DNA from: a virus
Length of the DNA: 64,000 bases
Strand: one strand, 5' to 3'
Virus record (IMG/VR): IMGVR_UViG_3300044816_000082
Span: 26,881-90,880 of that record
The number at the start of each line of letters is the position of its first letter. Positions within the stretch are counted from its first letter, which is position 1. The position numbers and the translations under genes are program-made. Below are positions 13,964 through 45,229 of this stretch, piece by piece. The notes beneath the pieces are model-generated. The model searched no databases, was not told the origin of the DNA, and saw only the letters and a program-made list of their open reading frames with translations.

Positions 13964-14009
13964 TCGCCGGGTAGCCACCGGGCGATGAGCAGCACGATGA
14001 GGAGGACAA

Positions 14010-14468
14010 GTGAACGAGTTGCTCGCGCACCTACTCGGGGACTACGTGATCCAGACCGATCACATGGCCGCGCGTAAGACCGTCGCCCACGGCCCGGCCG
14101 TCGCCCACGCCGTCACGTACACCCTGCCGTTCCTGGCACTGACCCGTCGCCCGCAGGCACTCGCTGTCATCGCCGGCACGCACTTCGTCATCGATCGGTG
14201 GCGCCTCGCTAAGTACGTCGTGTGGGCCAAGAACCAAGCCGCCCCGGCGGCGTGGCGACACAGCTACGACGAGCACGTCGTGGGCACCGGCTACCACCGC
14301 GAGCGAGGTGACTGGGATGGTCCCACCGGGGATGACTGGGATGATGCGAAGTGCTCGGTGCAGGCCAAGCCCGCGTTCCTGGCCGTCTGGCTGCTGATCA
14401 TCGCTGACAACACCCTGCACGGCTGCCTGAACGCGTGGGCGCTGCGCCGCTGGCCCTCCCGTGCCTGA
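14010..14468 (+). CDS. DUF3307 membrane protein
   Basis: AHLLGDYVIQT..MA..K, THFVIDRW, IIADNTLH; SD GAGGAGG. Confidence 0.85.
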   Translation: MNELLAHLLGDYVIQTDHMAARKTVAHGPAVAHAVTYTLPFLALTRRPQALAVIAGTHFVIDRWRLAKYVVWAKNQAAPAAWRHSYDEHVVGTGYHRERGDWDGPTGDDWDDAKCSVQAKPAFLAVWLLIIADNTLHGCLNAWALRRWPSRA

Positions 14469-14637
14469 GGACCGACCCGACCCGAGCAGGTTGTGGCTGT
14501 GGGCTGCCCTGTCGTTCCCCAACTCACCTGATGAGCGCCGCACCCGCTACCTCGAACTGATGCGCGAGCACGGGCACCTCGAGCCCGCCGAACCGGGGGA
14601 GGACAGCGACCTGCCGTGCGGGTGGCCCGGTGCCTGA
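14461..14637 (+). CDS. 58-aa hypothetical protein (not in ORF track)
   Basis: GTG..TGA open frame (RYLELMREHGHL...LPCGWPG) filling the gap with 8-nt overlaps at both ends. Confidence 0.6.
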   Translation: MPEDRPDPSRLWLWAALSFPNSPDERRTRYLELMREHGHLEPAEPGEDSDLPCGWPGA

Positions 14638-14929
14638 GCGGATCCAGCGCAAGCGCACGAAGGGCTACCGCCTGCCACCCACTGCGGTGTACGTCGGCCG
14701 GCCGAGCAGGTGGGGCAACCCCTACCGGGTCGGTGACGACGGCACCGCCGAGCGGTGTGTGGAGCTGTACCGCGTCAGCGCCCTCGGGTGGTGGACAACG
14801 GGTTGGCGTGAGCACGTCCGCGCTGAACTCGCCGGGCGCGACCTGGCGTGCTGGTGTCCGCTGACGGACGCCAGCGGCAACCGATTCCCCTGTCACGCCG
14901 ACGTCCTACTCGAACTCGCCAACGAGTAA
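14630..14929 (+). CDS. DUF4326 protein
   Basis: VYVGRPSRWGNPY...LAGRDLACWC...CHADVL. Confidence 0.9.
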   Translation: MPERIQRKRTKGYRLPPTAVYVGRPSRWGNPYRVGDDGTAERCVELYRVSALGWWTTGWREHVRAELAGRDLACWCPLTDASGNRFPCHADVLLELANE

Positions 14930-14944
14930 CGTTCACCGACCGCA

Positions 14945-15003
14945 TAGAACCCTGCTAACCGGGTATACACTTAGTGCAGGGGCCGGACGTGCGATCCGGT
15001 CCC
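14945..15003 (+). promoter_or_regulatory. early-type promoter motif plus leader hairpin
   Basis: GCTAACCGGGTATACACT followed by hairpin 14979-15003. Confidence 0.75.
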
Positions 15004-15019
15004 GCTGGAAGGACCCAAG

Positions 15020-15337
15020 ATGACCACCATGGCCAAGCCCACCGTCGAGCCCTACCAACTCAAGAACGCGGCCGGCTCCTTGCGGGGTTACGCCGCGATG
15101 CAGGCCGATGACTGGCAGCCGGAGTACGAGGCATGGCGACACGGCGGGTGGTACGTCATCACCGTGCGGTACCCCTCCGGGGCCGTGGGCTGCGTGAGCC
15201 GCAACTACCCGGACGGGAAGTGGCGGGTGGTGTGCGGTGACCACGACATCACCTACCCGAACCGGACCGCCGCCGCCAAGGCCGAGCGGGACATCGCCAC
15301 CCTTGAGTGGCACACCCTGATCGCCACTGCCTCGTGA
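15020..15337 (+). CDS. hypothetical early protein
   Basis: SD GGAAGGA downstream of promoter motif. Confidence 0.75.
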   Translation: MTTMAKPTVEPYQLKNAAGSLRGYAAMQADDWQPEYEAWRHGGWYVITVRYPSGAVGCVSRNYPDGKWRVVCGDHDITYPNRTAAAKAERDIATLEWHTLIATAS

Positions 15338-15591
15338 GCGCCGCGGTCAGGATCGTGAAGCTCTACCTACGGGCCGACGGGACCGTCCGGTCCGCGACGG
15401 TGTTCCTGCCCGGCTACGTCGAGGTCACCGTCGATGTCACCACGGGCGTTGTCAGCTACGCCTCGGACTGGACCGTGGACGGCGACACCCTGGCCTGGGG
15501 CCGTAACTACGGCCCCAGCACGTACGGCCACACTGACGTTGTGCTCGTCCCGTCGCTCCTCAAGGCTGTGCAGGCCGCGGTGGAAGCGTAG
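15334..15591 (+). CDS. hypothetical protein
   Basis: GTGA-coupled. Confidence 0.65.
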   Translation: MSAAVRIVKLYLRADGTVRSATVFLPGYVEVTVDVTTGVVSYASDWTVDGDTLAWGRNYGPSTYGHTDVVLVPSLLKAVQAAVEA

Positions 15592-15640
15592 GAACAGCGC
15601 TTACCGGGTATACAATCAGTAGGCAGGGTTGCTCCCCGCC
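15592..15640 (+). promoter_or_regulatory. early-type promoter motif
   Basis: GCTTACCGGGTATACAAT (-10 TACAAT). Confidence 0.75.
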
Positions 15641-15657
15641 ACGACGGAAGGACCATC

Positions 15658-15960
15658 ATGTACGTGACCGCGAAGCTCCACACGATGCGCAAACCGCAGC
15701 GCTTCCACGTCAGCCCCATGAGCGACGGCCGGATCCTCGTCCAGAGCGACAAGAGCATCGGGGTGTTTGACTTCCGCACCTGCGAGGGTGTCCTGAACGT
15801 GAAGGGCCACTACTTCCCGCACCTCAACCGTGCGCTCGGCGCGATGGCGTTCACGTTCCCGCTCGAGTTCGTCACCGAGTGCCTCGAGGCATCGCCGGCG
15901 CTCGACAGCGTCACCCACATGGGCGGCGTGACGTTCGTCAACACGATCGAGGTGATCTGA
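15658..15960 (+). CDS. hypothetical early protein
   Basis: GGAAGGACCATCATG start context. Confidence 0.75.
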   Translation: MYVTAKLHTMRKPQRFHVSPMSDGRILVQSDKSIGVFDFRTCEGVLNVKGHYFPHLNRALGAMAFTFPLEFVTECLEASPALDSVTHMGGVTFVNTIEVI

Positions 15961-16205
15961 TGGACTACGGGATCCTGTTCAGCCACGCGTCCGAGGACAC
16001 CATCCCCGGTCTCGTGTCGGGATCGTTCCCGAACATGGTCGCAGCCAGCAACGCGGCCATAAAGGTCACCCGCGCGGCGGGGGTCCGTTTCACCCTGGTG
16101 CAACGCTCGTCCCCCGACGCCCCGTGGCTGTCCCGGAAGGGACTGACCCCACGGGAGCGTCTCCACGAGGGGATCAACGCGGACTGGCACGGCTGGTCCC
16201 GCTGA
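15960..16205 (+). CDS. hypothetical protein
   Basis: TGATG coupling. Confidence 0.6.
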   Translation: MDYGILFSHASEDTIPGLVSGSFPNMVAASNAAIKVTRAAGVRFTLVQRSSPDAPWLSRKGLTPRERLHEGINADWHGWSR

Positions 16206-16258
16206 CCCCACCCGGGGGCGGGTAGCTACCCGCCCCCCCAACCCAAGGAAGGACCATC

Positions 16259-16666
16259 ATGATCGCGATTCTCGACCTCGTCGCCCGCAACGGCATCCCG
16301 TTCCGGGTCGTGTTCTACCACCCCGGCGAGTCAGGGCCCTACCCGGCCGCGGCTGACCCCGAGCACCCGATCGTCGAGTTCTACGTCCGGCGTTTCCCCC
16401 ACACCGACCACGGTCAGTTCGTGTCCCGGTACTACGCCGACACGATCCTTCGTCGGGGGTCGTTCCCGATGGGTCCCGGTCCGCTCAACCTCGACGGGGG
16501 TATCCCTGCGTGGAACATCGACGCGGACAGCATGGTGCTCGTCAGGGACTTCCTGACCCACCACCACCCCGCTGTGGTCGACTGCTGCCTCCGAGCCGGT
16601 CACGTCCCGCCCTGCACCGAAGGGGTCGCGCAGGTACCCCCCGCGAACCTGTGCAGAATCACCTGA
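16259..16666 (+). CDS. hypothetical early protein
   Basis: GGAAGGACCATCATG; VEFY..RF.H...GQFVSRYY.DT...LNLDGGIPAW.ID. Confidence 0.75.
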   Translation: MIAILDLVARNGIPFRVVFYHPGESGPYPAAADPEHPIVEFYVRRFPHTDHGQFVSRYYADTILRRGSFPMGPGPLNLDGGIPAWNIDADSMVLVRDFLTHHHPAVVDCCLRAGHVPPCTEGVAQVPPANLCRIT

Positions 16667-16717
16667 CACAGCACGTCAACCCGCTATACAATGAGGGTGA
16701 GAGGGGTAGCGCCCCTC
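16663..16717 (+). promoter_or_regulatory. early-type SigA-like promoter plus hairpin
   Basis: CTGACA-N18-TACAAT; 34/37 identical to 44619-44655. Confidence 0.8.
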
Positions 16718-16736
16718 CCCGATGGAAGGACTGATC

Positions 16737-17237
16737 ATGACCACAAGCACCGTCCACATGGACACGCTGAACGCTGTCCTCAACGCCTACGTCACCGAGA
16801 CCAGCGGCGACGCGTGGCTCGAGGGCGGCGGGGGTGCCGGCCCGTGGATCTACGCACCCACCATGAACGGGTGGACCGTCGTCATCGACGTCACCCTCGA
16901 GCGGTGGGAAGCGTCCCGGCAGCACGACGACTACGACCCGGTGGCGCTCCCCGACGGCCCGGCCATCGACGCGCCCGTCACGGACGTCGTCGCGTGGATG
17001 CGACGTTGCTGCGACGCCGAACCGGACCGGGACTCGCGGCAGTACGTGATCGGTCTTCCCGTCGTCATCACCGTCGCGAGCGACGGGACCGTGACGGCGG
17101 AGGTCGACCTGAGCGAGGCCGACGACATCTACGACGTGTCAGTCCCCGAGGGGCAGGACACGAGCGCGTCAGCCCTCGACCACGACGCGTCCCGGATCGC
17201 GCACGCAGCCAGCACCGGGCAGGTCACGGTCCGATGA
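16737..17237 (+). CDS. hypothetical acidic early protein
   Basis: SD GGAAGGA. Confidence 0.7.
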   Translation: MTTSTVHMDTLNAVLNAYVTETSGDAWLEGGGGAGPWIYAPTMNGWTVVIDVTLERWEASRQHDDYDPVALPDGPAIDAPVTDVVAWMRRCCDAEPDRDSRQYVIGLPVVITVASDGTVTAEVDLSEADDIYDVSVPEGQDTSASALDHDASRIAHAASTGQVTVR

Positions 17238-17602
17238 TCACCCCGGGCCTCGTCAAGGGTCGCGCTGAGAGCCACCCATGTACTCGCTGCGACCACCTTG
17301 GGCGGGTGACCTACCTCGCGTTCGGCACGTTCGTGTCGACCAAGACCTGCCCGGCGTGCGGTGGGCTCGGCATGGTCACCCTTCCCCGCGCCCCCCTCGT
17401 CCTTGCCCCGCACGTCCTCGACACGATCACCGAGCTTGACCTGATCGACGGTGGGTGGACGACACGTTGCACTGCCTGCGGGGACCTGCTTGACGACCCG
17501 GTCGACGCCTCCCGGTACAGCACGCTGTGCGCCGGGTGCCGCGCTGAGGAAGCATTCCGCGACGGCGACCACGATGCCTACGATCGCAGGGGAGACAGGT
17601 AA
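17234..17602 (+). CDS. Zn-finger protein
   Basis: CTRC..LG, CPACGGLG, CTAC, CAGC. Confidence 0.65.
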   Translation: MITPGLVKGRAESHPCTRCDHLGRVTYLAFGTFVSTKTCPACGGLGMVTLPRAPLVLAPHVLDTITELDLIDGGWTTRCTACGDLLDDPVDASRYSTLCAGCRAEEAFRDGDHDAYDRRGDR

Positions 17603-17805
17603 TGGAACCGCTCAACGGCGCCGGCCACTACCGCGAGGCTGAGCGGCTCCTGAACGACGCCGCGAGGATCGCCCACGAGGGGGAGCCTCAGACCTACTGG
17701 TACTCGGAGCAGGTCCAGGGCCGGGTCCAGGCAGCGGCCGTCCACGCGCAACTCGCGACGGCCGCCGCGCTGCTCGGTGAGTTCGAGCAGGGACACGACA
17801 CGTGA
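17602..17805 (+). CDS. hypothetical protein
   Basis: HYREAERLL...AAAVHAQLA; TAATG coupling. Confidence 0.7.
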   Translation: MEPLNGAGHYREAERLLNDAARIAHEGEPQTYWYSEQVQGRVQAAAVHAQLATAAALLGEFEQGHDT

Positions 17806-17972
17806 ACCGGCACGACGCTGAGCACCTCAACCGTTGGCATGATGACGGGACCTACCTTGAGCGGTTGTGGGCCGCGTTGACCCGCGAACCTCTCCCACCG
17901 ATCCCCCGACCCCGAGCTGAGGCCGAAGTGACCGCGACGGACGAGCCCCGCGTGAGCAGGAGCACCCGATGA
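17802..17972 (+). CDS. 56-aa hypothetical protein (not in ORF track)
   Basis: GTGA and ATGA overlaps at both ends. Confidence 0.5.
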   Translation: MNRHDAEHLNRWHDDGTYLERLWAALTREPLPPIPRPRAEAEVTATDEPRVSRSTR

Positions 17973-18343
17973 GTGGCCGACGATCCCGGCAACAACGCAC
18001 CCTCGTCGCGGTCGTTGAGGAGCATTACGACACCGCCGCGTCCCCCGGGTTGTGCGTGAACACCCCCGAGGCGATCGCGGAGATGAAGCAGCTCACCCAC
18101 GATGGGATCATCGCGGAGGCCGGGCACCGGAGGCGCTCCGGGGTCCGCTGGGGGATCTGGTACGGCGCTGAGGCAACGTCCATGTACGAGGAGATGATCA
18201 GCGAAACGGACACCCAACCCGACCCCAGGACCGTCGAGGTGTACCGCGCGTACCTCGCTGAGCACGGTCCGAACGCCGTCCTGGTCGTCGCGATGATCGA
18301 CGTCGTCCCGCCCTCCGGTCGGGTCCTGCTGGGACCGGGATGA
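17969..18343 (+). CDS. hypothetical protein
   Basis: Coupled, 124 aa. Confidence 0.65.
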   Translation: MSGRRSRQQRTLVAVVEEHYDTAASPGLCVNTPEAIAEMKQLTHDGIIAEAGHRRRSGVRWGIWYGAEATSMYEEMISETDTQPDPRTVEVYRAYLAEHGPNAVLVVAMIDVVPPSGRVLLGPG

Positions 18344-18702
18344 GTGCCCTCCCGCACGCGAAACGGCCCTGCGGTGCGTGCCCATGGCGCGTCGACGTCG
18401 ACCCGGGCGAGTTCCCCCCCGACAGGTACGCGTGCCTCGCTCGGACCTCCGCGGATCAACGGACCGGCGCGAGCGCGAGCGTCGAGGCACCGATGTTCGC
18501 GTGCCACCTGTCCCCTGACGGGAAGGAACGAGCATGCGCCGGGTGGCTCGCTGTTGAGGGCGCGGGGCACGTCGGGGTGCGACTCGCGGTCGTGACCGGC
18601 CGGCTCCCGAGCACGACCCTTCGCCCGGGGAAGGGCTGGCCCGAGCTGCACCCTGACTACGCCACCTTGGCAGCGATCAATGGACTAGGAGAGATCCCAT
18701 GA
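18340..18702 (+). CDS. DUF6283-like Cys-rich protein
   Basis: PCGACPWR.D...MFACH...CAGWL...H..VRLA. Confidence 0.75.
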   Translation: MSALPHAKRPCGACPWRVDVDPGEFPPDRYACLARTSADQRTGASASVEAPMFACHLSPDGKERACAGWLAVEGAGHVGVRLAVVTGRLPSTTLRPGKGWPELHPDYATLAAINGLGEIP

Positions 18703-19019
18703 CAGACGGCGACCCCGTCGACGAGCTCGACGTCATCGAGGCTGTGGTGGAGGACCTGGAGGACTTGTATAGCGATGCCGAACGTATCGGTAGGCGTCCC
18801 GTCGGCCTGGTACGGGACGCTGTCCACGATCGCGGGTGTCCTGGCGATGCCCGTGAGGCACGCCTCGAGCGGGACCTCGACAACGCCCGGGAGCGCCTCG
18901 CGACAGCCCTGAACGGCAGGAAGTGGAGCGCCGACGTGATCCCGCCGCCCCTCGAGGAATCACTGCGGCGCGTCGAGGCACTCCTCCTGATCGCACCCGA
19001 CAGCCCGGAGCATAGATGA
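18699..19019 (+). CDS. hypothetical protein
   Basis: Coupled, SD AGGAG. Confidence 0.6.
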   Translation: MTDGDPVDELDVIEAVVEDLEDLYSDAERIGRRPVGLVRDAVHDRGCPGDAREARLERDLDNARERLATALNGRKWSADVIPPPLEESLRRVEALLLIAPDSPEHR

Positions 19020-19276
19020 GCAAAGGCCGGTCCCGTGCGACGGTGACGCCAGCAGCACCGGACTTCCACCGGGTCCGGCACTTCGGGTACAGCCCGGTTG
19101 GGACGGAGGTCTGCCTGTACTGCGCGGTCATGTTCGACCCCGGTGAGATGCGCTACCAACTCGTCGATACCCGGTTCGTGTACCCAATGGGAGCGATCTT
19201 GCCGCTGCACCTGTCGTGCGCCCGTGCGCGTAAGGCCAACCCGCCACCGCCCCGCGAAAGGATCTGGCATCAGTAG
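19016..19276 (+). CDS. hypothetical protein
   Basis: CLYC...HLSC. Confidence 0.55.
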   Translation: MSKGRSRATVTPAAPDFHRVRHFGYSPVGTEVCLYCAVMFDPGEMRYQLVDTRFVYPMGAILPLHLSCARARKANPPPPRERIWHQ

Positions 19277-19477
19277 ATGAACACCGACCCGACCCGACCC
19301 TGCTGCGACCTTCACTGGAACGGCGGCATCAACTGGTGGGGAACCACCCATGACTGTCCGCGTGACGGGGAGGGCATGACGCTCTGCTGCGGGCGGACGC
19401 CCTTCGACCTGCCCCGTTCCGACCACATGACGATCGACGCCACACTCGTCACTTGCACCGGGAACCGTCATCTCTGA
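19277..19477 (+). CDS. small Cys-rich protein (possibly the N-terminal part of the next ORF)
   Basis: CCGRTPFDLP..D.MT.D..LVTC. Confidence 0.55.
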   Translation: MNTDPTRPCCDLHWNGGINWWGTTHDCPRDGEGMTLCCGRTPFDLPRSDHMTIDATLVTCTGNRHL

Positions 19478-19550
19478 CTTCGAGGCCACCGCCCTGCAGG
19501 ACCTGCTCACCAAGGCCAAGGCGCTCGGCGTCCCGGACGACCACCCGCGC

Positions 19551-20332: not shown

Positions 20333-20353
20333 GCACCGGGCCGGCGTTAGCCT
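20323..20353 (+). promoter_or_regulatory. late-type promoter
   Basis: CGCGAC-N19-TAGCCT. Confidence 0.65.
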
Positions 20354-20384
20354 GCCGTTCAACACCGACCCGTCGGAGGACCTC

Positions 20385-20453: not shown

Positions 20454-20479
20454 CCGAGCTCGGCGTAGCGTCCCCGGCC

Positions 20480-20728: not shown

Positions 20729-20780
20729 GCACCCCCAACCCCGGCCGGTAGGCGACCCGGCCTTCATGGAAGGACCAAGC

Positions 20781-21902: not shown

Positions 21903-22336
21903 GCCCGGCAACCCGCAACCCGGGTGTGCCGTCGAAAGCGGGTGCTCCCCGTCCTGACGGGTTCCTGCTCCGCCCCGCCCCGACCGCGGAGCACCTGTGC
22001 ACCCCACCCATGCGGGAAGTCCGGATCTACGCCCCCCGCGGGCCGGCCGTCGGGGAGCGCTGCACATGCCGGGCTGACACCGGGGAGGTCGATGTCGAGT
22101 GTCCCGCCGACGGCACCCCCACGCCCCGCGCATACCACCCTGAGGACGTCCCCGACGGTGAACCTGGGACGTTGTGGCGATGCAGGTGCGGCCAACCGTG
22201 GCAGCTCCGGGTCCGGCAGGTCGAGCGGGATCGTGGGGTGTATCACGGGGTGCGGGTGTGGGACCGGACCTCCGAACGACAGGTCAGGCGAGCGCTGCGC
22301 CGCGCCCGCCGGCGAGGGTGGTGGCGACGTGGCTGA
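21899..22336 (+). CDS. hypothetical protein
   Basis: GTGA-coupled; HLCTPP...WRCRCG. Confidence 0.5.
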   Translation: MSPATRNPGVPSKAGAPRPDGFLLRPAPTAEHLCTPPMREVRIYAPRGPAVGERCTCRADTGEVDVECPADGTPTPRAYHPEDVPDGEPGTLWRCRCGQPWQLRVRQVERDRGVYHGVRVWDRTSERQVRRALRRARRRGWWRRG

Positions 22337-23737: not shown

Positions 23738-23738
23738 G

Positions 23739-23769
23739 CGCGACCCTGCCACGGGTCGGGTCGTAGCCT
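23739..23769 (+). promoter_or_regulatory. late-type promoter
   Basis: CGCGAC-N19-TAGCCT. Confidence 0.7.
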
Positions 23770-23805
23770 GCCCCCGAGTAGCCCACACAGCTTCGGAGGA
23801 ACCTC

Positions 23806-24225: not shown

Positions 24226-24434
24226 CGGAGCGGGCGTGCTCGTGCGGGGTTCCACGCCCTCGCACGAGCACGACCTCACCCCTATCCTGCAGGGGATGAA
24301 GGTCACGAAGTGGGGACGGCTGTGGCGTGGACACATCCGGGTCGTCCCACCACATCGCTCCCGAAACGTCGCCGGGCCGTTGTACTCTGCGGCGATGTCG
24401 GGCGAGCGACCCGACGTGGAGGAAGGCACCTGCC

Positions 24435-25850: not shown

Positions 25851-25865
25851 GCGAGAGGCCGGGTT

Positions 25866-26530: not shown

Positions 26531-26542
26531 ACAGGACCTAGC

Positions 26543-26583
26543 GCGCTAACGTGGTTGACAATGAGGGGGCAAGCGGCCCCTTC
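26543..26583 (+). promoter_or_regulatory. degenerate early-type promoter plus hairpin
   Basis: GCTAACGTGGTTGACAATGAGGG then GGGG-CAAGCGG-CCCC. Confidence 0.55.
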
Positions 26584-27249: not shown

Positions 27250-27310
27250 GTTACACCGACGCTAACCGGGTATACACTTGTTGTAGGGGACCGGGTAGCC
27301 ACCGGGTCCC
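27250..27310 (+). promoter_or_regulatory. early-type promoter plus hairpin
   Basis: GCTAACCGGGTATACACT; hairpin loop GTAGCCA; SD GAGGAGG follows. Confidence 0.7.
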
Positions 27311-27366
27311 GCGAGGAGGTTCCTGATGACCCTGACCTACGGCTGGTGTGGAACCACCATGCATCC

Positions 27367-27392
27367 ACTCGGTAGCGGCGGTGGGCACGATG
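27367..27392 (+). repeat. gene-junction repeat CYCGGTAGCGGCG (1 of 5 copies)
   Basis: Copies at 27367, 27651, 27853, 33484 and 34289. Confidence 0.7.
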
Positions 27393-27683
27393 CCTGAGCA
27401 GCCTTCCCGTGTGGTTGCTGAGACGTGCGCCAGCCTGCTCACCGACCCGAACAGACACCATCACCGCTGCGACCTAGCCCCTGGACACGACGGGGACGAG
27501 CATCGCCATCAGATGCCCGGCTACGCGCTGACCTGGCTAACAAGGGACGAGTCGTCCCTCACCGGACGACTCGAAGGGTTCTGTGGACAGGAGCCCGACC
27601 ACGGCCCGCACACCACTCGTTTCATGTGGTGCATCGGTCACGGACCAACGCCCGGTAGCGGCGGCACGGAGGGCGAGCGGTGA
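27390..27683 (+). CDS. His/Cys-rich hypothetical protein
   Basis: C.L..GH.G..H and CG...DHGPH...C.GH motifs. Confidence 0.55.
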   Translation: MPEQPSRVVAETCASLLTDPNRHHHRCDLAPGHDGDEHRHQMPGYALTWLTRDESSLTGRLEGFCGQEPDHGPHTTRFMWCIGHGPTPGSGGTEGER

Positions 27684-28182: not shown

Positions 28183-28239
28183 CACCCCGTCAACCGGGTA
28201 TACGATGGTGGGCAGCCCGGTCGGGATAGCCACCCGACC
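28183..28239 (+). promoter_or_regulatory. early-type promoter plus hairpin
   Basis: GTCAACCGGGTATACGAT; GGTCGGG-ATAGCCA-CCCGACC. Confidence 0.75.
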
Positions 28240-28258
28240 CGAACGCTAGGAGGACCTC

Positions 28259-28396
28259 ATCGCATACCTACGGCGCCTGCTCTGCGGTGCCCTCGGCCAC
28301 CGTCCGTCCCTAACCGAATGGGTCACCACCGACAAGCGCAGCGTGCTCCGTCCCTGCACACGTTGCGGTGCCTACCTCAAGAGAGAAGCCCGATGA
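28259..28396 (+). CDS. 45-aa DUF1660-like ORF lacking a canonical start (ATC)
   Basis: SD AGGAGG then ATC; LLCGALGH...CTRCG; ATGA overlap with the next gene. Confidence 0.5.
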   Translation: MAYLRRLLCGALGHRPSLTEWVTTDKRSVLRPCTRCGAYLKREAR

Positions 28397-29268: not shown

Positions 29269-29905
29269 CGCGCTCCTCGAGCGGGCTCTCGCTCCCGTCC
29301 AAGCTCTCGCCTTCGCGGTTCACACCCTGGACGCGGCGGAGGTTGAACGGACGATCGGGTGGCTCCGTCAACACGCACTCGCGGACGCCGCCCTGGTCCT
29401 GCTCGCGGGGATGGTCGACATCGACCGCCCGGTCAGCGATCTCCTCGCGTGGAAGGACGAGCAGATCGCAGCGCAAGCCCGCGCAACCGCGCGCCGGGGC
29501 GCACGGCTCCTACCGTGCGGGACCCCAGCGGCGTACGCCCGGCACCGCAAGCACGGTGAGGAGCCATGCGAGGCGTGCATGATCGCGAACCGGCTCAGGA
29601 ACCGAGACCGCTACCAGCAGCAACTGCTCGGCGGGAAGGTCGTTCGTAAGCCCCTCGCTCCGTGCGGGACCCACGCCGCGTACACCCGGCACAAGAAACG
29701 AGGGGAACCTATCGATGAGGTCTGCGACCTCGGGGAGAGCGCCTACCAGCACGAGCGGTACGTCGCCCGGACCGGTCGAGATGATGCCCCTCGACGCCCC
29801 CGAAACCGCCCGCTAACCGACTATACTCCGGTGGTCGGGTCGAGCGAACCGTCGGAGGAAGGACACCCCCGCATGACCATCACCTCGTCAAGGAGCTCCC
29901 CATGA
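29261..29905 (+). CDS. protein with two PCGT.AAY.RH...GE repeats (putative Zn-binding DNA binder)
   Basis: PCGTPAAYARHRKHGEEPCEAC and PCGTHAAYTRHKKRGEPIDEVC. Confidence 0.75.
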   Translation: MSDALLERALAPVQALAFAVHTLDAAEVERTIGWLRQHALADAALVLLAGMVDIDRPVSDLLAWKDEQIAAQARATARRGARLLPCGTPAAYARHRKHGEEPCEACMIANRLRNRDRYQQQLLGGKVVRKPLAPCGTHAAYTRHKKRGEPIDEVCDLGESAYQHERYVARTGRDDAPRRPRNRPLTDYTPVVGSSEPSEEGHPRMTITSSRSSP

Positions 29906-38638: not shown

Positions 38639-38645
38639 GCACGCT

Positions 38646-38879
38646 GTGACGACACCTGACCCCCCCAACACGGGGGTACCCACGACACGCGTCGGGCTGG
38701 GGTTCGTGATCGCTCTGGTCGACGCGGTCGCGTTGCTGCTGATCGTGGCCGGGTCGGTCCTTGCCTGCGTGGCCGGGTGGATCGGGGCCGGCCGGGTGGG
38801 ACTTCTCGCTGTCCTTGGAGGTGTGCTGCTGCTCCTCGGCATCCTGCTCGGTCTGACCGGAGGCGACGATGGCACGTAG
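38646..38879 (+). CDS. small 2-TM membrane protein
   Basis: Long hydrophobic stretches; directly upstream of the portal. Confidence 0.65.
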   Translation: MTTPDPPNTGVPTTRVGLGFVIALVDAVALLLIVAGSVLACVAGWIGAGRVGLLAVLGGVLLLLGILLGLTGGDDGT

Positions 38880-41800
38880 GTTCCTGTCAGGGGTGCAACT
38901 CAAAGGACGGCCGCTGCAGACCGTGCTTCCGTCGGGGGCCGTTGATGTGCACGGTGGACCTCGGGAGCGTAAGGAACTGGTCTTGTCGTCCTACTTCGGG
39001 GGCGGTCTGGTCAGCGCGAACCCGGCAGGGCCGGCGGGGAAGGCATGGACGTGGCAGCGGGGAGTGGTCGAGGGATACAGCCGGGTCGTGTGGTGCTACC
39101 GGGCGGTGGAGGTCCTCGCGGGGGTCTACAGCAGGCTCCCGCTGATGGTCGCGGACATCCTCACGCTCGGGGCCGATCGTGAACCGGAGCTCGTCTTGGA
39201 CGACCCGCTCCTGCCGTTGCTGAGCCAGTACGGACACGCGAACCCGGTCGAGACTGGGCAGCAGTACCGGCACCGCAAGGCGCAGCAGGTGCTGCTGAGC
39301 CCGCGCGGGACGTTCACGGAGGTACTCAAAAGCCGCGGCGGGACGCCCCTGTCGCTGACGCTGCTGCCCCCTGGCCGGACCAGGATCGTCGCGGCGAAGG
39401 ACGGGAGCATCGACCACTACGAGGTCGACCCGCACCGGCCCGGCGACAGGATCCGACCGATCGAACCCGATCTTGTGCTGTGGGACCGGGACCCGCACCC
39501 CGACAACCCCTACGCTGGGATGACGCCCCTCGAGGCGGCGGGGTTGACGTTGGAGACCGATCACTTCGCGCGCCTGTTCAACCGGTCCTACCTCGCGAAC
39601 GACGACGGGGTCGCAACGATCGTCGGGGTCGAACCCTCCGATGACGACAGCGGTGAGCTCAGCGAGGAGGAAAGCGAACGGATCGAACGCAAGATCGGGG
39701 GCAACGGGGTCCTCGACGCCGGCCGGACCATCGTCGTCGACGGGAAGGTCACGATGGTCGATGTGGGCCGTACCCCCCGCGATGCGTCGTACGGCGAGCT
39801 GCGCCTCGCAGGCCGGGACGAGATCAGCATCGCCTTCTACGTGCCCTTGTCGAAGATGGGCGACGCCTCGGGGCGGACCTATGCGAACGCAGGTCAGGAA
39901 GATGACAACTGGTGGCCGGAACGGGTAGCGCCGTTCGCGGACGCCCGCGCGGGCGCGTACAACCCCCTCACCGACGATGGGCTCGCGGTCATCCCGGACT
40001 ACAGCCGCGTGGAGGCGCTCAACAACCTGCGCCGCAAGCGTCGGGAGGAGATGTCCGCGGAGGTCACCGCCGGGCTGCGGACCCCGCTGTCCTACGCCCG
40101 CCGAACCGGGCAGCTCGGCACCGGGGACTTCCCCGACGTCCCCGGTACCCGGGTGCTGTGGCGCACCGGTGGTGTCCCGATCGGGGATCCCGCCGATGTT
40201 GCGGAGGCCGAGAAACTCACGATCATCTCCGCGCCTGTCGCGCCACCCGCCACGGGCACTCAACCCCTATCGGTACCGCCGGCGAACGTCCCAACGCCCG
40301 TGGAGGGTAAGCGTGCCGCACGAGCGCACCACACGAAAGCGGGACCGGGCCGTGACCAGGACGACGACGCGGAGGATGATCGAGCGGCGCTGGACGCCGC
40401 GGTTGAGGGGGCGCTCGCGGCACTGGCGACCCGCCAGACCGATCAGGCACTCGCGCGACTGAGTGGCGTCAAGGCGCGCCGCGACACCCGGTATTGGAAC
40501 CCCCCGGGTCGTAAAACGATCAATCCCGACGACGTCGCGGACCCGGAGGTGTGGGCGCAGCAGGCGTACGACGCGACTGCTCCGCTCCTCGCTCAAGGCG
40601 CCGCGCAGGCCGGTGTCGGGACCTACGATCAGCTCGCAGCGCAGGGCGTCGACGTCGCCCCCGAGGAACTCCCACCGGAGGAAACGTCCGACCCGCTCAT
40701 CGATGCGCTCGTCACGGTCGCTATGGCCGCGATCGGGACCGCCCCCATGACGGTCCCCGCCGCGGCGGTCCCGATCATTGCCTACCTCGCGGGGCGGGGA
40801 GCGTTCGAGGCGGCGCAGGTCATCGCGGACGCGGCGCGGGCCCGCGCTGAGCGGGTACGGGCTGCGCTCGCTGAGGCGCAGCACCTCGCTCCGCTCGCCG
40901 GCCGGGACGCCCTCACGCCCGTGCAGGACGCTGTACGAGTCGCCGCTGGGGACGCCCTGGCGTGGGCGAAACGTAACGCCACCGTCGCGGTCACCGCCGC
41001 CGTCGAAGGGACCCGTACCCGGATTCTTACCGCTGCTGGGGACCGCGTCGAGCGGATCTGGCGGACCCGCCGCGATGACAAGGTCCGTCCGGCGCATGAG
41101 GAAGCGGAGGGGCAGGTCCGGCGTGCTGCGGCGCCGTTCGACGTCGGTGGGGAGGAACTCCGCTGGCCCGGCGACCCCCTCGGGAGTCCGGAGAACATCA
41201 TCAACTGTGTTCCGCCCTGGCAGACCGTCAGCCCTGTCGGGGACTTGCTCGCGGTGCTACGGGCGCCCTATGACGGGCTGCTCTACACGGTGACGACGCG
41301 GAGCGGCCGCGTCCTGTCCGGTACAGCGCAGCACCCTGCACTCACCGACCGAGGATGGGTCGGCCTCAGCAGCCTGAGCATGGGCGACCACCTCATCGGC
41401 GAGGCGCTCGGACAGGCACGTCACGCCGGGACCAAGGGCGACCCCGCGGGCACACCAGACGTACAGGACGCGCCAACCCGCGCCGACGAGCTGTTCCATG
41501 CGGTCGCTCAAGCGGGGAACCAACAGCGGGTGGCCCGGCTGGCGGTGAACCTCCACGGCGACCTGGCCGATGGTGATGTCGACGTTGTAGCGACCGACTG
41601 CGACTTGCCTCCCGAGAACGACCCCACGCTCGCGGAGCAGATCGCACAGTTCGTCTTCACCGAGGTTCACCCGGCCGTCACGCTGCCGAGTGACAGCCCG
41701 CGCAGCCATCGACTCGTCGGTGTCGCGCTGTCCGCGGCGCGCAGCGTGAGCCGCGGCAGCGAGTGTCCGGCGGTCGTCGGGGCTGGTACGCGCCATGCGG

Positions 41801-44325
41801 GTCAACATGGCGTCACCCCGACCCCGGATAGGCACGCCCTCGCGCTCGAAACGTCGGCGCAGCGCGTCCCGGCTCACTCCGAGTTCGCGGGCGAGGGCAT
41901 TCTCGGACTCTCCGGCGAGGTACCTGTCGGAGATCCCCTCGGGCAGGGTCAGGTGACGACGCTTCCCGCGCAGAGGGATACCCGCCTCACGGATCACGTC
42001 GTAGACCCTGGTCAGGGACTGGTGGAGGTCCCGGGCGATCTCGCCGACGTTCTGCCCTTCGACGTAGCGACGGACGAGATCGTCTCGATCGACTCGCGCT
42101 GGTATCGCGGTCACGTCTACACCCTCCACACAAGCACCGGCATCTACCTCACAGACGGGCTGTCGAGTCGTAACTGCCGCTGTCGCGTATCTTACCGGAT
42201 CCGGCGCAAGGGCGTCCCGTACGTCAAGGCCCTCGAGGGCGAGCTCGAGGGCAAGGTGTTCGAGGAGGACAAGCACCCCCGCGGGTTCCACGGACGGTTC
42301 GGGCACGTCGTCAAGACCGAAGCAGAGGGGCTGTCCGACGCCCTCGAGGTCCACCACGCCCCGAGCGGTCCTGAGGAAATGACCGCGGAGTCGCTGCACG
42401 CGCGGGCGCGGAAGGGCGAGAAGCTCGCTGGTCGGACCGTGACGCTGCTCGGCGCGACGTCCGGGGATCCCTACGACGTGACCCTCACGCGGGAGCCGCA
42501 GGTCCACCCTGACGGGATCGTTCTGAACTTCCACCGCGGCTACGACGCCGACGGGGAACTGCGGGTCGGGCAGCGAAAGCTCGAACCCGACGAGGTGATC
42601 CACCTGCACCCGGCCGTGATCGCTGACGTCATGCACGGCGCCGACCCGACGCATCACGCCCTCGGGGGTGAGGGTCACCTGCAGCTCCCCGAGGGGATCC
42701 GGCGGGGCAAGAACCACGTCCGGGCCGTCGCTGCTGCACGTGCCGTCATCGGGGAACGTCCAGGTCGGCGCCTGCGGACCCCCGAGAACGACAGTGAGGT
42801 CGAGCGGTACAACGGTCTCATCGCGATCAACCAGGAGGGGGTCGACAGGTGGAAGCACGCCCTCGCGACGGGGATCGTGCCGATCGACAACGCCGGCGGG
42901 CAGGAGGGCGTCAAGTTCGGGTCGCGGCGAGACGAGTACGGGCTGCACACGAGCAGGTCGGAGGCGCAGGACTACCTCGATCAGTACCAGGGGACCGTCG
43001 ATCGGATTACCGCGAAACGCGATGAGTACCTCGCCTTCCTGCACAAGCAGAACGTCTATCCGCAGGGTGGGCGGTGGGAGTACGACACCGACACCGGTCA
43101 CGCGCATCTCACGGCGGTCCTTTCGGCGGGGAAGACCCTCGACGCGAAAGCGACCCGCAGAGCTGACCGGGCGATCTTGGCCGAAGGTGTCAACGACGCC
43201 GCGGTCCGGGCTCGTCTGGACGTGATCGAGGCTGAGTTCACCGCAGCTCGGCGTGCGCGCAGCGCCGTCCTCGAGTCCCTGGCCGGGAAGGACGACATTG
43301 AGGCGCGTAAGGCGGTGCTCGACGCGCTTCCACAGACCCACCCGCAGGTGTACGCCCGGTTCGAGGCTGCGTTCGCAGCATCAGAGGCCGCCGCTGGCGC
43401 GTGGACAGAGGCGTGGTCCCGGCGCAACGAGATCACCCGGCAGGCGTACCTCGAGGTCCTGCATGAGGTCCGGCCGATGGGTGCCGGTGACACCGGCGGG
43501 CACGACCTGCTCGCAGAGGGCATGAGAGGGACGTACAGCGGACGGGTGCGTGACCTCAAGGTCGGGGACAGGTTCCCCTACGCAGATGATCCGCAGGGCG
43601 GGCGCAGGTACCGGGTCGTGCAGGCCACCCGACCCGACCCGGACAATCCCGGGAAGTGGCTCGTCACGACCGCCGATGAGGACGGGACACGGGCGCTTGA
43701 GGGACGGTTCTACGCTGATGAGCATGTTGAGCTCGACCCGCCGAAAGGATGGGTCCCGTCCCCGACTGCGGGTGAGAGCAACGCGATCATCGCGCTGCGC
43801 GCCGCGGAACGGTTCTACCCGACGTCGTGGATCGCGGCGAGCCGCGGGACCGGGCAGATGCGCGTGGGACATGTCGAGCGTGGGTTCTACAGCGCGGAGA
43901 AGGCCGTCATCGCCCTGTCAGGTACCGACGCCGACCTGAACCGGGTCGCGGTCCACGAGCTCGGGCACCGCGCTGAGTACACCGTCGATGGGCTGATGAC
44001 GTTGGAGTTCCAACTCCACTACGAGCGGACCGCGACGAAGCCTGGTGCGAAGGTGCATCCCCGCAACGAGCTCCGACAACTCGACGGCTACCCCACCGGG
44101 GAGGTCGCGCAGGCCGATCAGTACCCCACGGCGTACAGCGGCCGGGTGTACGGCAGGGGCCGGCCCGAGAACGCCTGGGAGGTGTTCTCGACCACCATCG
44201 AGTCGCTGTTCGGGGGCAGCTCGCATGCTGATGAGCAGATGCGCCAGTTCGGGCTGGGTGTCCTCGCGACCCTCGGGCCGGCGAGCGCGGCCCCGCCGAC
44301 GTTCGTGCCAGACGTGCGTCCGTAG
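38869..44325 (+). CDS. portal protein - MuF fusion with intein and C-terminal HExxH metallopeptidase-like domain
   Basis: HK97-like portal N-terminus (YAGMTPLEAA, EISIAF.VP..MG...RTYAN); MuF WRTRRDDKVRPAH...PF.VGGE.LRWPGDP.G.PENIINCRC after splicing; HELGH at 43954-43968. Confidence 0.88.
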   Translation: MARRFLSGVQLKGRPLQTVLPSGAVDVHGGPRERKELVLSSYFGGGLVSANPAGPAGKAWTWQRGVVEGYSRVVWCYRAVEVLAGVYSRLPLMVADILTLGADREPELVLDDPLLPLLSQYGHANPVETGQQYRHRKAQQVLLSPRGTFTEVLKSRGGTPLSLTLLPPGRTRIVAAKDGSIDHYEVDPHRPGDRIRPIEPDLVLWDRDPHPDNPYAGMTPLEAAGLTLETDHFARLFNRSYLANDDGVATIVGVEPSDDDSGELSEEESERIERKIGGNGVLDAGRTIVVDGKVTMVDVGRTPRDASYGELRLAGRDEISIAFYVPLSKMGDASGRTYANAGQEDDNWWPERVAPFADARAGAYNPLTDDGLAVIPDYSRVEALNNLRRKRREEMSAEVTAGLRTPLSYARRTGQLGTGDFPDVPGTRVLWRTGGVPIGDPADVAEAEKLTIISAPVAPPATGTQPLSVPPANVPTPVEGKRAARAHHTKAGPGRDQDDDAEDDRAALDAAVEGALAALATRQTDQALARLSGVKARRDTRYWNPPGRKTINPDDVADPEVWAQQAYDATAPLLAQGAAQAGVGTYDQLAAQGVDVAPEELPPEETSDPLIDALVTVAMAAIGTAPMTVPAAAVPIIAYLAGRGAFEAAQVIADAARARAERVRAALAEAQHLAPLAGRDALTPVQDAVRVAAGDALAWAKRNATVAVTAAVEGTRTRILTAAGDRVERIWRTRRDDKVRPAHEEAEGQVRRAAAPFDVGGEELRWPGDPLGSPENIINCVPPWQTVSPVGDLLAVLRAPYDGLLYTVTTRSGRVLSGTAQHPALTDRGWVGLSSLSMGDHLIGEALGQARHAGTKGDPAGTPDVQDAPTRADELFHAVAQAGNQQRVARLAVNLHGDLADGDVDVVATDCDLPPENDPTLAEQIAQFVFTEVHPAVTLPSDSPRSHRLVGVALSAARSVSRGSECPAVVGAGTRHAGQHGVTPTPDRHALALETSAQRVPAHSEFAGEGILGLSGEVPVGDPLGQGQVTTLPAQRDTRLTDHVVDPGQGLVEVPGDLADVLPFDVATDEIVSIDSRWYRGHVYTLHTSTGIYLTDGLSSRNCRCRVSYRIRRKGVPYVKALEGELEGKVFEEDKHPRGFHGRFGHVVKTEAEGLSDALEVHHAPSGPEEMTAESLHARARKGEKLAGRTVTLLGATSGDPYDVTLTREPQVHPDGIVLNFHRGYDADGELRVGQRKLEPDEVIHLHPAVIADVMHGADPTHHALGGEGHLQLPEGIRRGKNHVRAVAAARAVIGERPGRRLRTPENDSEVERYNGLIAINQEGVDRWKHALATGIVPIDNAGGQEGVKFGSRRDEYGLHTSRSEAQDYLDQYQGTVDRITAKRDEYLAFLHKQNVYPQGGRWEYDTDTGHAHLTAVLSAGKTLDAKATRRADRAILAEGVNDAAVRARLDVIEAEFTAARRARSAVLESLAGKDDIEARKAVLDALPQTHPQVYARFEAAFAASEAAAGAWTEAWSRRNEITRQAYLEVLHEVRPMGAGDTGGHDLLAEGMRGTYSGRVRDLKVGDRFPYADDPQGGRRYRVVQATRPDPDNPGKWLVTTADEDGTRALEGRFYADEHVELDPPKGWVPSPTAGESNAIIALRAAERFYPTSWIAASRGTGQMRVGHVERGFYSAEKAVIALSGTDADLNRVAVHELGHRAEYTVDGLMTLEFQLHYERTATKPGAKVHPRNELRQLDGYPTGEVAQADQYPTAYSGRVYGRGRPENAWEVFSTTIESLFGGSSHADEQMRQFGLGVLATLGPASAAPPTFVPDVRP
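41206..42174 (+). mobile_element. intein (323 aa) in the MuF NCRC motif
   Basis: N-terminal Cys (CVPPWQTV), block B GTAQHPALT.RGW, block F VYTLHT, ends ...SSRN followed by Cys. Confidence 0.88.
41257..42114 (-). CDS. antisense HTH-HTH-DUF559/Vsr-like endonuclease nested in the intein
   Basis: GTG start with GGAGG 8 nt upstream; two RY..G.S...ARxLxxS repeats; GEDEL..LL.ERG....QVAVGRYNVD....VAVEV...GWRVLYVW. Confidence 0.8.
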   Translation of the reverse strand: MTAIPARVDRDDLVRRYVEGQNVGEIARDLHQSLTRVYDVIREAGIPLRGKRRHLTLPEGISDRYLAGESENALARELGVSRDALRRRFEREGVPIRGRGDAMLTRMARTSPDDRRTLAAAAHAARRGQRDTDESMAARAVTRQRDGRVNLGEDELCDLLRERGVVLGRQVAVGRYNVDITIGQVAVEVHRQPGHPLLVPRLSDRMEQLVGAGWRVLYVWCARGVALGPGVTCLSERLADEVVAHAQAAEADPSSVGECRVLRCTGQDAAAPRRHRVEQPVIGRP

Positions 44326-44340
44326 CGCTACCGTCTGACG

Positions 44341-44622
44341 ATGCGTGTCACCGGGTGGATCAGCCAGCAGCCCTACGACGTTCAGTGGGGCGGCGGGATG
44401 GTGTGGGGCAACGACCACACCAACGGGACTGAGGCCACGCTGACGCTGCTCGAGAGCAGCGTCGGGCGCTCGTTCGACCCGGGCCCGGGAATGCCCGACC
44501 TTGTGCTGAGCCTCGATGATCCGCGCAGCGTGCTCGGGTGCCTGAACGGGTCAACGACCCTCGGGACGGTTGAGGACGGGCCGCTGCTCGCTCCGCCGTT
44601 ACCCGAAGGCGCGATCGGCTGA
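44341..44622 (+). CDS. small acidic protein, candidate immunity to the MuF C-terminal domain
   Basis: Follows the MuF fusion; TACCGT 6 nt before ATG. Confidence 0.6.
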   Translation: MRVTGWISQQPYDVQWGGGMVWGNDHTNGTEATLTLLESSVGRSFDPGPGMPDLVLSLDDPRSVLGCLNGSTTLGTVEDGPLLAPPLPEGAIG

Positions 44623-44680
44623 CACCGCGCGTCAACCCGGTATACAATGAGGGTGCAGGGCAGGCGAGCGACCCGCCCCG
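44619..44680 (+). promoter_or_regulatory. early-type promoter plus hairpin
   Basis: CTGACA-N18-TACAAT; hairpin loop CGAGCGA. Confidence 0.8.
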
Positions 44681-44695
44681 CGAGGAGGAAACGAG

Positions 44696-45172
44696 ATGAG
44701 CCAAGGACCAGCCACCGCGAGCAGCACCTACCTGTGTCCCGACTGCGATCAGGCGTTCACCGGGCTCGGCGGGGCGATGTGGGAGCACAAGTACACCCAC
44801 CGTCCCTACACGGCGGTCGACCCGAGCACGCCGCAGCGGTACACGCGGTTGTTCGCGACCGTCGAGGAGGCACGGGCGTGCGCGCAGGGCGGCGTCGTGA
44901 AGGACGCCCGGACTGACAAGGTTGTCCCGGTGAACGTGGGCCGCATATGCGCGAGCTGCGAGGCTCCCGTCACCTACGCCCCGGAGACCGGCAGGTCGAG
45001 TTGGCGGCACACCGACCCGACGACCCCGGAGCACGGATGGGTCGACCCGATGTCGCAGTGCCCCACCTGCGGGGAACGGTCGGCGGTGTGGGAGGTGCGG
45101 GACACCAACTGGGGTATCCAGTCCGACTGCGCGGCCTGCGGGTACAGCCACTACATGTCGATCGGTGACTAG
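44696..45172 (+). CDS. Zn-finger moron protein
   Basis: CPDC, CASC, CPTC, CAAC; SD GAGGAGG. Confidence 0.7.
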   Translation: MSQGPATASSTYLCPDCDQAFTGLGGAMWEHKYTHRPYTAVDPSTPQRYTRLFATVEEARACAQGGVVKDARTDKVVPVNVGRICASCEAPVTYAPETGRSSWRHTDPTTPEHGWVDPMSQCPTCGERSAVWEVRDTNWGIQSDCAACGYSHYMSIGD

Positions 45173-45229
45173 AACCGCGCTAACCGGGTATACATCCATT
45201 GTGGGAGGTGGGCAAGCGGCCCACCTCCC
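45170..45229 (+). promoter_or_regulatory. early-type promoter plus hairpin
   Basis: TAGAACCGCGCTAACCGGGTATACA; GGGAGGTGGG-CAAGCGG-CCCACCTCCC. Confidence 0.8.

Follow-up and report, generated by a model that had tools for sequence, protein, structure and literature searches.

The phage DNA analyzed here, a window of 64,000 nucleotides (nt) covering bases 26,881-90,880 of IMG/VR record IMGVR_UViG_3300044816_000082, harbors a family of GC-rich hairpins that carry a nearly constant AGC at the apex of variable stems and stand just upstream of the Shine-Dalgarno (SD) sequence of mostly small genes. This hairpin is a real control element and an uncatalogued one. At least 19 hairpins of this kind occur in the genome, 14 inside the window and five upstream of it, and the element is also present in two other phages, the IMG/VR phage G002 and Streptomyces phage Gilgamesh. 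The alignments described below support the view that it is structured and selected as a fold, with stems varying by compensatory change under a constant loop core. Its role can be suggested only tentatively: we favor a cis-acting, 5'-terminal RNA stem-loop that may protect early and middle phage mRNAs and whose loop may be read by a putative factor.

Structure and conservation of the hairpins

A first-pass annotation, made from the sequence alone, had described a conserved 5'-leader hairpin with variable stems and a uniform NN(A)GCNN heptaloop. A GC-rich inverted repeat was found directly 5' of the SD at each of the positions that it listed, with predicted folding energies between -11 and -28 kcal/mol, and both fold and covariation sustain the hairpin with its variable stems. 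The heptaloop proved too narrow a definition, as loops range from 3 to 7 nt across copies (CGAGCGA, GUAGCCA, AAGCG and AGCU were among the types seen) on stems of 5-12 base pairs (bp): the copy at 16214 had been read out of register and forms a 10-bp stem with an AGCU tetraloop, those at 26565 and 45203 carry AAGCG pentaloops, and the one at 16701 can close to an AGC triloop. Good copies have in common the apical AGC, which is UGC at 14979 and 15622, a G-rich 5' arm and closure of the loop by two G-C pairs. Overall, 5' arms contain 72 G vs. 24 C and 3' arms 29 G vs. 71 C, and the same bias recurs in G002 and Gilgamesh. The hairpin is always oriented in the direction of the downstream gene, rare opposite-strand copies included, and some copies are clearly paralogous (14979/27287 and 13964/27287).

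The association with leaders exceeds chance. AGC-centered hairpins were present in seven of the 11 leaders picked by the promoter motif alone, vs. 1.5% of random 45-nt windows (binomial P 4e-11), and in nine of the 11 when a center of either AGC or TGC was allowed (P 3e-13); among perfect-stem hairpins, a central AGC in the 7-nt window was found in 10 of 98 intergenic vs. 13 of 724 coding cases. In an ungapped alignment of 17 copies from this phage, 84.9% of the cells pair vs. 62.9% after shuffling, and 24 cells are compensatory vs. 8, counts biased upward by the choice of these copies as hairpins. A second alignment (A3), comprising 40 distinct copies from the three phages, pairs in 90.4% of the cells vs. 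61.7% when shuffled, with 74 compensatory cells vs. 21 in shuffles and changes on both sides at all seven pairs; in the loop, A17 is conserved in at least 90% of the copies, and G18 and C19 do not vary at all. A loop that stays constant while its stems change usually points to recognition of a specific sequence.

The copies are listed below, in window positions unless genome positions are indicated; R2 is the second of the two covariance models introduced further on.

3531-3553, plus strand: leader hairpin CGGCCGGG-GTAGCTC-CCGGGCCG (copy 3542), then SD AGGAAGGG and a GTG start, upstream of the gene for a DnaC/IstB-like loader; 20.9 bits with R2; absent from the first-pass list
13964-13985, plus strand: hairpin TCGCCGG-GTAGCCA-CCGGGCGA, adjoining the preceding stop codon, without the conserved promoter motif; TACCCT ends 10 nt upstream
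14979-15003, plus strand: hairpin GGGGCCGGA-CGTGCGA-TCCGGTCCC with UGC apex, starting 7 nt past the -10 box and followed by SD GGAAGGA
15622-15640, plus strand: weak hairpin GGCAGG-GTTGCTC-CCCGCC with UGC apex and one mismatch
16214-16237, plus strand: 10-bp hairpin GGGGGCGGGT-AGCT-ACCCGCCCCC, tetraloop, upstream promoter motif absent
16701-16717, plus strand: hairpin GAGGG-GTAGCGC-CCCTC, further closure to an AGC triloop possible
20743-20762, plus strand: doubtful member GGCCGG-TAGGCGAC-CCGGCC, 8-nt loop without AGC, no promoter motif
24395-24417, plus strand: hairpin ATGTCGGG-CGAGCGA-CCCGACGT, adjoining SD GGAGGAAGG; TACTCT ends 6 nt upstream; 28.5 bits; absent from the first-pass list
26563-26583, plus strand: hairpin GAGGGGG-CAAGCGG-CCCCTTC, AAGCG pentaloop, containing a G.U pair
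27287-27310, plus strand: hairpin GGGACCGG-GTAGCCA-CCGGGTCCC with one bulge, then an SD and a 23-codon open reading frame (ORF)
28219-28239, plus strand: hairpin GGTCGGG-ATAGCCA-CCCGACC, then SD AGGAGG
29838-29850, plus strand: doubtful member GGT-CGAGCGA-ACC, loop sequence kept, three in-register pairs only; the minimum free energy (MFE) fold uses another loop
44658-44678, plus strand: hairpin GGGCAGG-CGAGCGA-CCCGCCC with one mismatch, top score of all copies (31.4 bits; 29.6 bits with R2)
45202-45230, plus strand: 11-12-bp hairpin TGGGAGGTGGG-CAAGCGG-CCCACCTCCCG, adjoining SD GGAAGGA, AAGCG pentaloop, z = -5.5 vs. shuffles
Genome 20341, 22267, about 24830 and 25426: copies upstream of the window; closure to an AGC triloop possible at 20341
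Genome 22156-22184, minus strand: opposite-strand copy preceding a minus-strand gene

The earlier list was thus incomplete, the copies 3542 and 24395 and the five upstream of the window having been missed. Of its entries, 15622 has a UGC apex, the CGAGCGA sequence noted at about 29836 is indeed there on a short in-register stem, and the 8-nt loop of 20743 contains no AGC. The observation that no U-tracts follow the hairpins was correct, no T-run being present after any copy.

Short ORFs were observed directly 3' of some leader hairpins, namely the one of 23 codons at 27326-27397 and one of 10 codons at 29873-29905, whose stop overlaps the ATG of the next gene (ATGA). At 28248-28396, past hairpin 28219 and its SD, the sole in-phase codon at normal spacing is an ATC (28259) that opens a 45-codon ORF with cysteine pairs; it may represent an AUC start of a small zinc-ribbon-like protein. 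A further hairpin, TGACCCGC-CTCGCTA-GCGGGTCG, occupies a 251-nt gap at genome 20241-20263, and its loop UCGCU complements the AGCGA of CGAGCGA-class loops. It was dropped as a kissing partner (loop CUCGCUA), being a single case that fits the CGAGCGA class only and is probably due to chance.

Promoter motif and leader geometry

Most hairpins are preceded by a conserved motif, gCTAACCGGGTATACA, of which the leaders contain 11 copies within three mismatches of the 13-mer, plus two GCTAACGTGGTTGAC variants. The TACNNT inside the motif can be read as the -10 box of a host-type promoter, in which case the motif would combine spacer and -10, and the two best copies have TGACAC as a hexamer 17-18 bp further upstream. 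An operator role is conceivable for the invariant ACCGGGTA spacer. TANNNT ends 5-12 nt before the first paired base in 12 of the 18 plus-strand hairpins vs. 1% of random positions (P ~2e-20), two more hairpins have the promoter motif with an imperfect -10, and at least 14 of the 19 copies stand behind a -10 box. The placement between promoter and SD given in the first-pass annotation is right for most copies; nine of its 12 sites follow the conserved motif, and 13964, 16214 and 20743 do not. Transcription usually starts about 7 nt past the -10 box, which would put the first base of the helix at about +1 to +5 of the predicted transcript; the spacing in 12 of the 18 hairpins, and the same geometry in G002 and Gilgamesh, are in line with such a 5'-end position.

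The gap between stem and SD is 0-12 nt in most copies. The SD itself is a generic one (GGAAGGA, GGAGG or AGGAGG) and does not form part of the conserved hairpin; most of the downstream genes are small and most lack a known family. Promoter and hairpin are separable: a hairpin is missing behind one motif copy (48535-48553), which shows that it does not belong to the promoter as such, and for about five hairpins no promoter can be seen. The promoter features are as follows.

14954-14972, plus strand: promoter-like motif GCTAACCGGGTATACACT, -10 read as TACACT
15599-15617, plus strand: promoter-like motif GCTTACCGGGTATACAAT
16663-16692, plus strand: sigma-70-type promoter CTGACA-18-TACAAT, called by an independent promoter scan and including motif AACCCGCTATACA (16675-16692)
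26541-26562, plus strand: variant promoter GCGCTAACGTGGTTGACAAT, -10 read as TAACGT; found again upstream of the copy at genome 25426
27261-27279, plus strand: promoter-like motif GCTAACCGGGTATACACT
28189-28207, plus strand: promoter-like motif GTCAACCGGGTATACGAT
29812-29830, plus strand: promoter-like motif GCTAACCGACTATACTCC
44631-44651, plus strand: promoter-like motif GTCAACCCGGTATACAATGAG, TGACAC upstream at -35 spacing
45179-45197, plus strand: promoter-like motif GCTAACCGGGTATACATC
48535-48553, plus strand: promoter motif GCTAACCGGGTATACGCT without hairpin
Genome 20314 (plus strand) and 22205 (minus strand): promoter motif copies outside the window

A second intergenic motif, GGCGCGACCCTGCC ... 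GTCGTAGCCTGC, was observed at 23738-23805, 45908-45986, 48947-48988 and 52676-52719 and at genome 3231 and 4032. It precedes structural or late genes, is never followed by an AGC-loop hairpin, and is probably a separate (late) promoter class.

Occurrence in other phages

The first-pass annotation had proposed a covariance-model check, and beside the covariation reported above this returned matches in G002 and Gilgamesh and none in Rfam. A first model (R1), built from 17 copies, was run over records found via capsid similarity; among the first five, G002 (IMGVR_UViG_2932604667_000002; 126,865 bp, 69% GC, capsid 45% identical) gave 31 matches, 28 of them on one strand, and the other four gave 0-1. 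With R2 (matches counted at E<=1), 19 were found in this phage, 41 in G002 and nine in Gilgamesh, vs. none in Rainydai, Peebs, GMA6, Cantare and IMG/VR record G017, one each in phiC31 (weak) and IMG/VR record G018, and two weak ones in GAL1. Judged from these matches, the element is lineage-specific among the actinophages compared.

The G002 leaders are laid out as TTGCCA, 17 bp, ..AAATACCGGTACNNT (TACNNT), 7 nt to the core stem, GTTGGG-AGAGCGA-CCCGAC, a few nt, GGAGG and the start codon. Of the 53 occurrences of AGAGCGA in G002, 37 are inside such hairpins, and the same loop is borne by stems as different as GTCCGGG/CCCGGCC, TAGGCCCGG/CCGGGCCTA, TCGCCGG/CCGGCGA and TCGTCCAGG/CCTGGGCGA; the few opposite-strand copies precede genes on that strand. 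G002 also has ATACCGGTAC, a related version of the promoter motif of this phage. Its nearest cultured relative is Gilgamesh (MN234216.1), where 7-9 copies display the loops AGAGCAA, AGAGCAG and CGAGCAU on unrelated stems, 7-8 nt past GTGTACTAT (TACTAT) and 17-25 nt upstream of genes 114, 121, 122 and 124, whose starts were annotated independently. At 103108-106812 of Gilgamesh, each gap between genes 115-121 contains a long GC hairpin right past the stop codon, without T-tail and without conserved loop. The AGC-loop class is distinct, given that these other operon hairpins lack a conserved loop. The proteins common to the three phages were structural only, plus partly RecT, exonuclease and loader (tblastn, Pfam/PHROGs), and tblastn together with Pfam/PHROGs scans of about 40 proteins found no non-structural trans-factor candidate common to all three.

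Three related IMG/VR contigs of 78-89 kb (L121, L131 and L162) were observed to carry one leader each (CGGG-AGAGCGA-CCCG, GGAG, ATG), and the covariance model found no larger hairpin family in them. Capsid relatives at 61-85% identity exist; the nearest IMG/VR contig (L026, 63% capsid identity) had structural genes only and was without the element. The promoter 15-mer returned low-GC chance matches only in IMG/VR, the promoter plus SD pattern returned chance matches only in JGI metagenomes, and scans guided by the 850-amino-acid protein and the exonuclease gave no close relative. Matches of a G002 hairpin 15-mer in IMG/VR were mostly chance matches in coding sequence, and a G002 13-mer was not commoner than its reversed control in Actinophytocola, Nonomuraea and Streptosporangium genomes (related prophage-like contigs); the covariance model is too weak for searches of megabase-sized host genomes. 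Gordonia phages of the Chidiebere type were rejected as carriers, their leader design being different.

Genome setting

The source is an uncultured phage of high-GC bacteria. Its record is 90,880 bp long with a 127-bp terminal repeat, GC content is 66-71% across the window (68% as genome summary figure), and our gene calls yielded about 134 genes, nearly throughout on the plus strand. Among the products identifiable by Pfam/PHROGs scans are a portal fusion protein, an HK97-type capsid, DNA methylases, RecT, an IstB-like loader and a GH5 enzyme. Capsid identity is 44% with 90-kb Gordonia phages and 37% with Gilgamesh; megablast with a 20-kb query gave no DNA-level match to any cultured phage, and no tRNAs were found in the window. 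Three large proteins were also observed, one of 1818 amino acids with a portal domain at the N terminus (38869-44325), one of 850 with a Zeta-toxin/AAA_33 kinase-like domain at the C terminus (45987-48539), and one of 1228 with LAGLIDADG and intein-splicing signals (48989-52675).

Possible function of the element

In the explanation that we tentatively favor, a cassette of host-type promoter, hairpin, SD and start codon would serve phage genes of the early or middle class, most of them small. The triphosphate end of the message would be buried in a G-rich/C-rich helix running almost to the SD, and this 5'-terminal helix may shield the mRNA from 5'-end-dependent decay through the RNase E, RNase J and pyrophosphohydrolase entry routes, all of which actinobacteria possess. 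The hairpin would at the same time keep the SD free, and at the few promoter-less copies it may provide a stable end after processing. The apical AGC, in a GAGCGA-type loop, would be the recognition tag for a trans-acting factor that treats all tagged messages alike; such a factor is suggested because stability alone cannot explain the invariant AGC, and a host protein appears as likely as a phage one, since no candidate is common to the three phages. A bolder extension seems doubtful, in which the hairpin would be a regulon tag of a type so far undescribed in actinophages: a dedicated RNA-binding factor, from host or phage, would read the GAGCGA-type loop at the 5' end of tens of messages and so turn the whole early/middle set on or off, via antitermination, selective protection or decay.

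Several points weigh against a protective 5'-terminal stem-loop. Folding energy is modestly unusual, with a mean MFE of -17.1 kcal/mol in the 11 leaders vs. -13.4 in random 45-nt windows (P 0.001); leader z-scores vs. shuffles are mixed, and one third of the random windows reach -15 kcal/mol. The copies used for covariation were picked partly for pairing, which inflates those numbers. G.U and A.C combinations stand at 24:4 in the stems of G002 and 6:1 in Gilgamesh vs. 6:6 in this phage, whose own stems show no strand preference. Five of the 19 copies, and several in G002, have no recognizable promoter, and a strictly 5'-terminal role therefore cannot cover all of them; moreover, predicted starts lie at the 5' arm, which would fall outside the transcript if starts were further downstream. 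The loop is left unexplained by the stabilizing half of the reading, no binding factor was identified in about 40 proteins scanned or by tblastn among the three phages, and megablast and the 15-mer, pattern and protein-guided scans recovered no close relative for orthologous conservation. The structured protein-binding element proposed in the first-pass annotation holds with regard to structure, given its compensatory stems and constant loop core, while the protein half found no counterpart among the proteins scanned.

The tight link to the ribosome-binding site could alternatively point to a translational operator or enhancer, with a factor or the ribosome binding the loop beside the SD and thereby raising or shutting off translation of all tagged genes, as in the models of T4 RegA and coat-protein operators. 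In most copies of all three phages 0-12 nt separate the stem from the SD, the hairpin stays with the SD where the promoter is absent, and start-associated motifs of Cluster K and EF phages occupy the same place (PMC3203893, PMC7302621). We nevertheless regard this as rather unlikely, as SD and start codon are never inside the hairpin, loops lie at distances from the start that differ by over 10 nt, the proteins scanned included no candidate repressor, and this model leaves the constant spacing from the -10 box unexplained. A nut-like role, where a factor would bind the loop on nascent RNA and render the polymerase resistant to Rho or other stops as lambda N does at boxB, would agree with a promoter-proximal hairpin at nearly all early promoters, with the protein-recognition signature of a constant loop on variable stems, and with the position of certain copies within operons, as nutR. 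It is unlikely in view of the loops, which are not GNRA-like pentaloops, of the lack of boxA-like sequence within 60-80 nt of the copies and of any N-like or Q-like protein among those scanned, and of the number of sites (19-40 per genome vs. two in lambdoid phages); no predicted intrinsic terminators need read-through, and antitermination would not require the 0-12-nt link to the SD.

The hairpin might instead mark a boundary of the PeSL type described in T4-type phages, either as an attenuator of upstream transcription or as a DNA-level recombination hot spot shuffling small genes. Layout is the same, with a G-run/C-run stem-loop repeated many times before ORFans (PMC2839356, PMC4122927), the downstream genes here are mostly orphans, and a crossover inside a PeSL loop is reported for RB49 (PMC4122927). 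This reading appears quite improbable to us: the stem-loop lies past the -10 here and mostly inside or upstream of the promoter in RB49 and phi1 (PMC4122927), the T-tail that mycobacterial RNA polymerase needs, according to one study (PMC3993855), is absent, diverged stems offer little homology for recombination, and a strand-specific loop is conserved between phages without common cassette genes. That the palindromes have no specific function, being ordinary products of GC-rich DNA whose AGC comes from common descent of duplicated leaders, is very improbable. High-GC DNA does fold readily (background MFE -13.4 kcal/mol, a third of windows at -15) and clear paralogues exist among the copies (14979/27287, 13964/27287), but chance is at odds with the enrichment statistics, the loop was kept on stems that have diverged completely, the same core recurs in two more phages with different promoters and genes, and seven control actinophages give 0-2 weak R2 matches. 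Among these readings, protection of the message by a tagged 5'-terminal stem-loop remains the one we favor.

Relevance

Almost nothing is known of post-transcriptional control in actinophages, where the SAS/ESAS motifs have stayed unexplained since 2011. The element described here is a compact RNA motif of 7 to about 40 copies per genome, at a fixed distance from the promoter, in three otherwise unrelated phages. It provides a concrete new family for RNA catalogues and a bait for pull-down of a putative RNA-binding factor, and since Gilgamesh can be grown on Streptomyces lividans a test system is ready. It may also represent a portable leader for stable expression in Streptomyces engineering. 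Were it only a 5' stabilizer, it would be a tidy, unsurprising variant of known phage expression cassettes.

Comparison with known systems

The suggestion that the element was undescribed agrees with Rfam 15, which gave no match at gathering score in 64 kb; at E<=5 it gave two chance microRNA matches only, away from the hairpins. An intrinsic terminator was rejected, as no hairpin was among the terminator-like sites, T-tails are missing, and such sites are as frequent as in shuffles; a study on mycobacterial RNA polymerase reports a requirement for a U-tract in termination (PMC3993855). Pairing of the loop with downstream GCU was at chance frequency; GNRA, T-loop and anticodon mimicry were inconsistent across loop classes, and an ANTAR target needs two hexaloop hairpins. 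T7-type RNase III sites comprise a duplex of at least about 20 bp, in many cases interrupted by an internal loop, and the hairpins, with stems of only 5-12 bp, were rejected as sites of this kind.

Lambdoid boxB has a 5-bp stem and a GNRA-like pentaloop (GAAAA, GAAGA or GACAA). Like boxB/nut, the element is a small promoter-proximal RNA hairpin with a loop that would be read by a protein and a stem needed just as helix, but the boxB-like features proposed in the first-pass annotation are absent: loops are AGC- or UGC-centered and none is a GNRA-like pentaloop, no boxA-like sequence (YGCUCUUUA) was matched by regular expression in the region between -60 and +80 nt around each of the 18 plus-strand copies, and tens of copies exist, each beside an SD. 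About 40 of the approximately 134 proteins gave no antiterminator match vs. Pfam or PHROGs; N proteins are small and poorly modeled.

Stem-loops that stabilize the 5' terminus are known from the Escherichia coli ompA leader, Bacillus subtilis aprE and phage SP82. As predicted for the element, they have a stable helix within a few nt (about 4 or fewer) of the 5' end, a ribosome site close behind and little single-stranded RNA; they differ in lacking a conserved loop and in being single cases rather than a genome-wide family, and the 5' end of the element is predicted from the 5-12 nt between -10 box and stem in the three phages. For phiC31, another Streptomyces phage with a repeated early-promoter family and intergenic hairpins without U-tails, early promoters, conserved inverted repeats and U-less terminators were reportedly described by Ingham et al. 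in 1993 and 1995 and Smith et al. in 1999. A phiC31-like model was rejected, since in NC_001978 the promoter differs (GGGTTGCCGACTCCCTTAC), hairpins lie upstream of promoters, and AGC-loop leader hairpins are absent.

Among actinophages, the SAS and ESAS of Cluster K mycobacteriophages and Cluster EF Microbacterium phages are strand-specific motifs upstream of start codons, for which binding of a host or phage factor was proposed, with little support for an ESAS mRNA hairpin according to the authors (PMC3203893, PMC7302621). They share with the element an actinophage-specific occurrence just 5' of the starts of a subset of genes, and the 13-mers GGGATAGGAGCCC and GGGAAAGGACCCC have the GGG-7 nt-CCC format found in GGGAGAGCGACCC of G002. 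However, the SAS is a conserved, asymmetric 13-nt motif that is itself at the SD position, whereas the SD is here separate and generic, and ESAS repeats keep their sequence and show no compensatory change, whereas here stems vary in a compensatory way and the loop is conserved.

The closest resemblance in layout is to the PeSL cassettes of the T4-type phages RB49/phi1, PST and nt-1, which consist of an early sigma-70-type promoter, a stem-loop and an SD (PMC2839356, PMC4122927). PeSL stem-loops lie mostly between or over -35 and -10 or upstream of them, terminator activity was shown, and a crossover within the loop was reported for RB49 (PMC2839356, PMC4122927). Both systems repeat a unit of promoter, stem-loop, SD and start before small, mostly orphan genes in many copies per genome, with stems formed by a G-run and then a C-run. 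Unlike in PeSL, the -10 box is followed here after 5-12 nt by the stem, which lacks a T-tail and would lie in the new transcript, and while PeSL has no conserved loop, the AGC core is invariant across stems and three phages. The element is a PeSL-like promoter-hairpin-SD cassette, set apart by its conserved loop.

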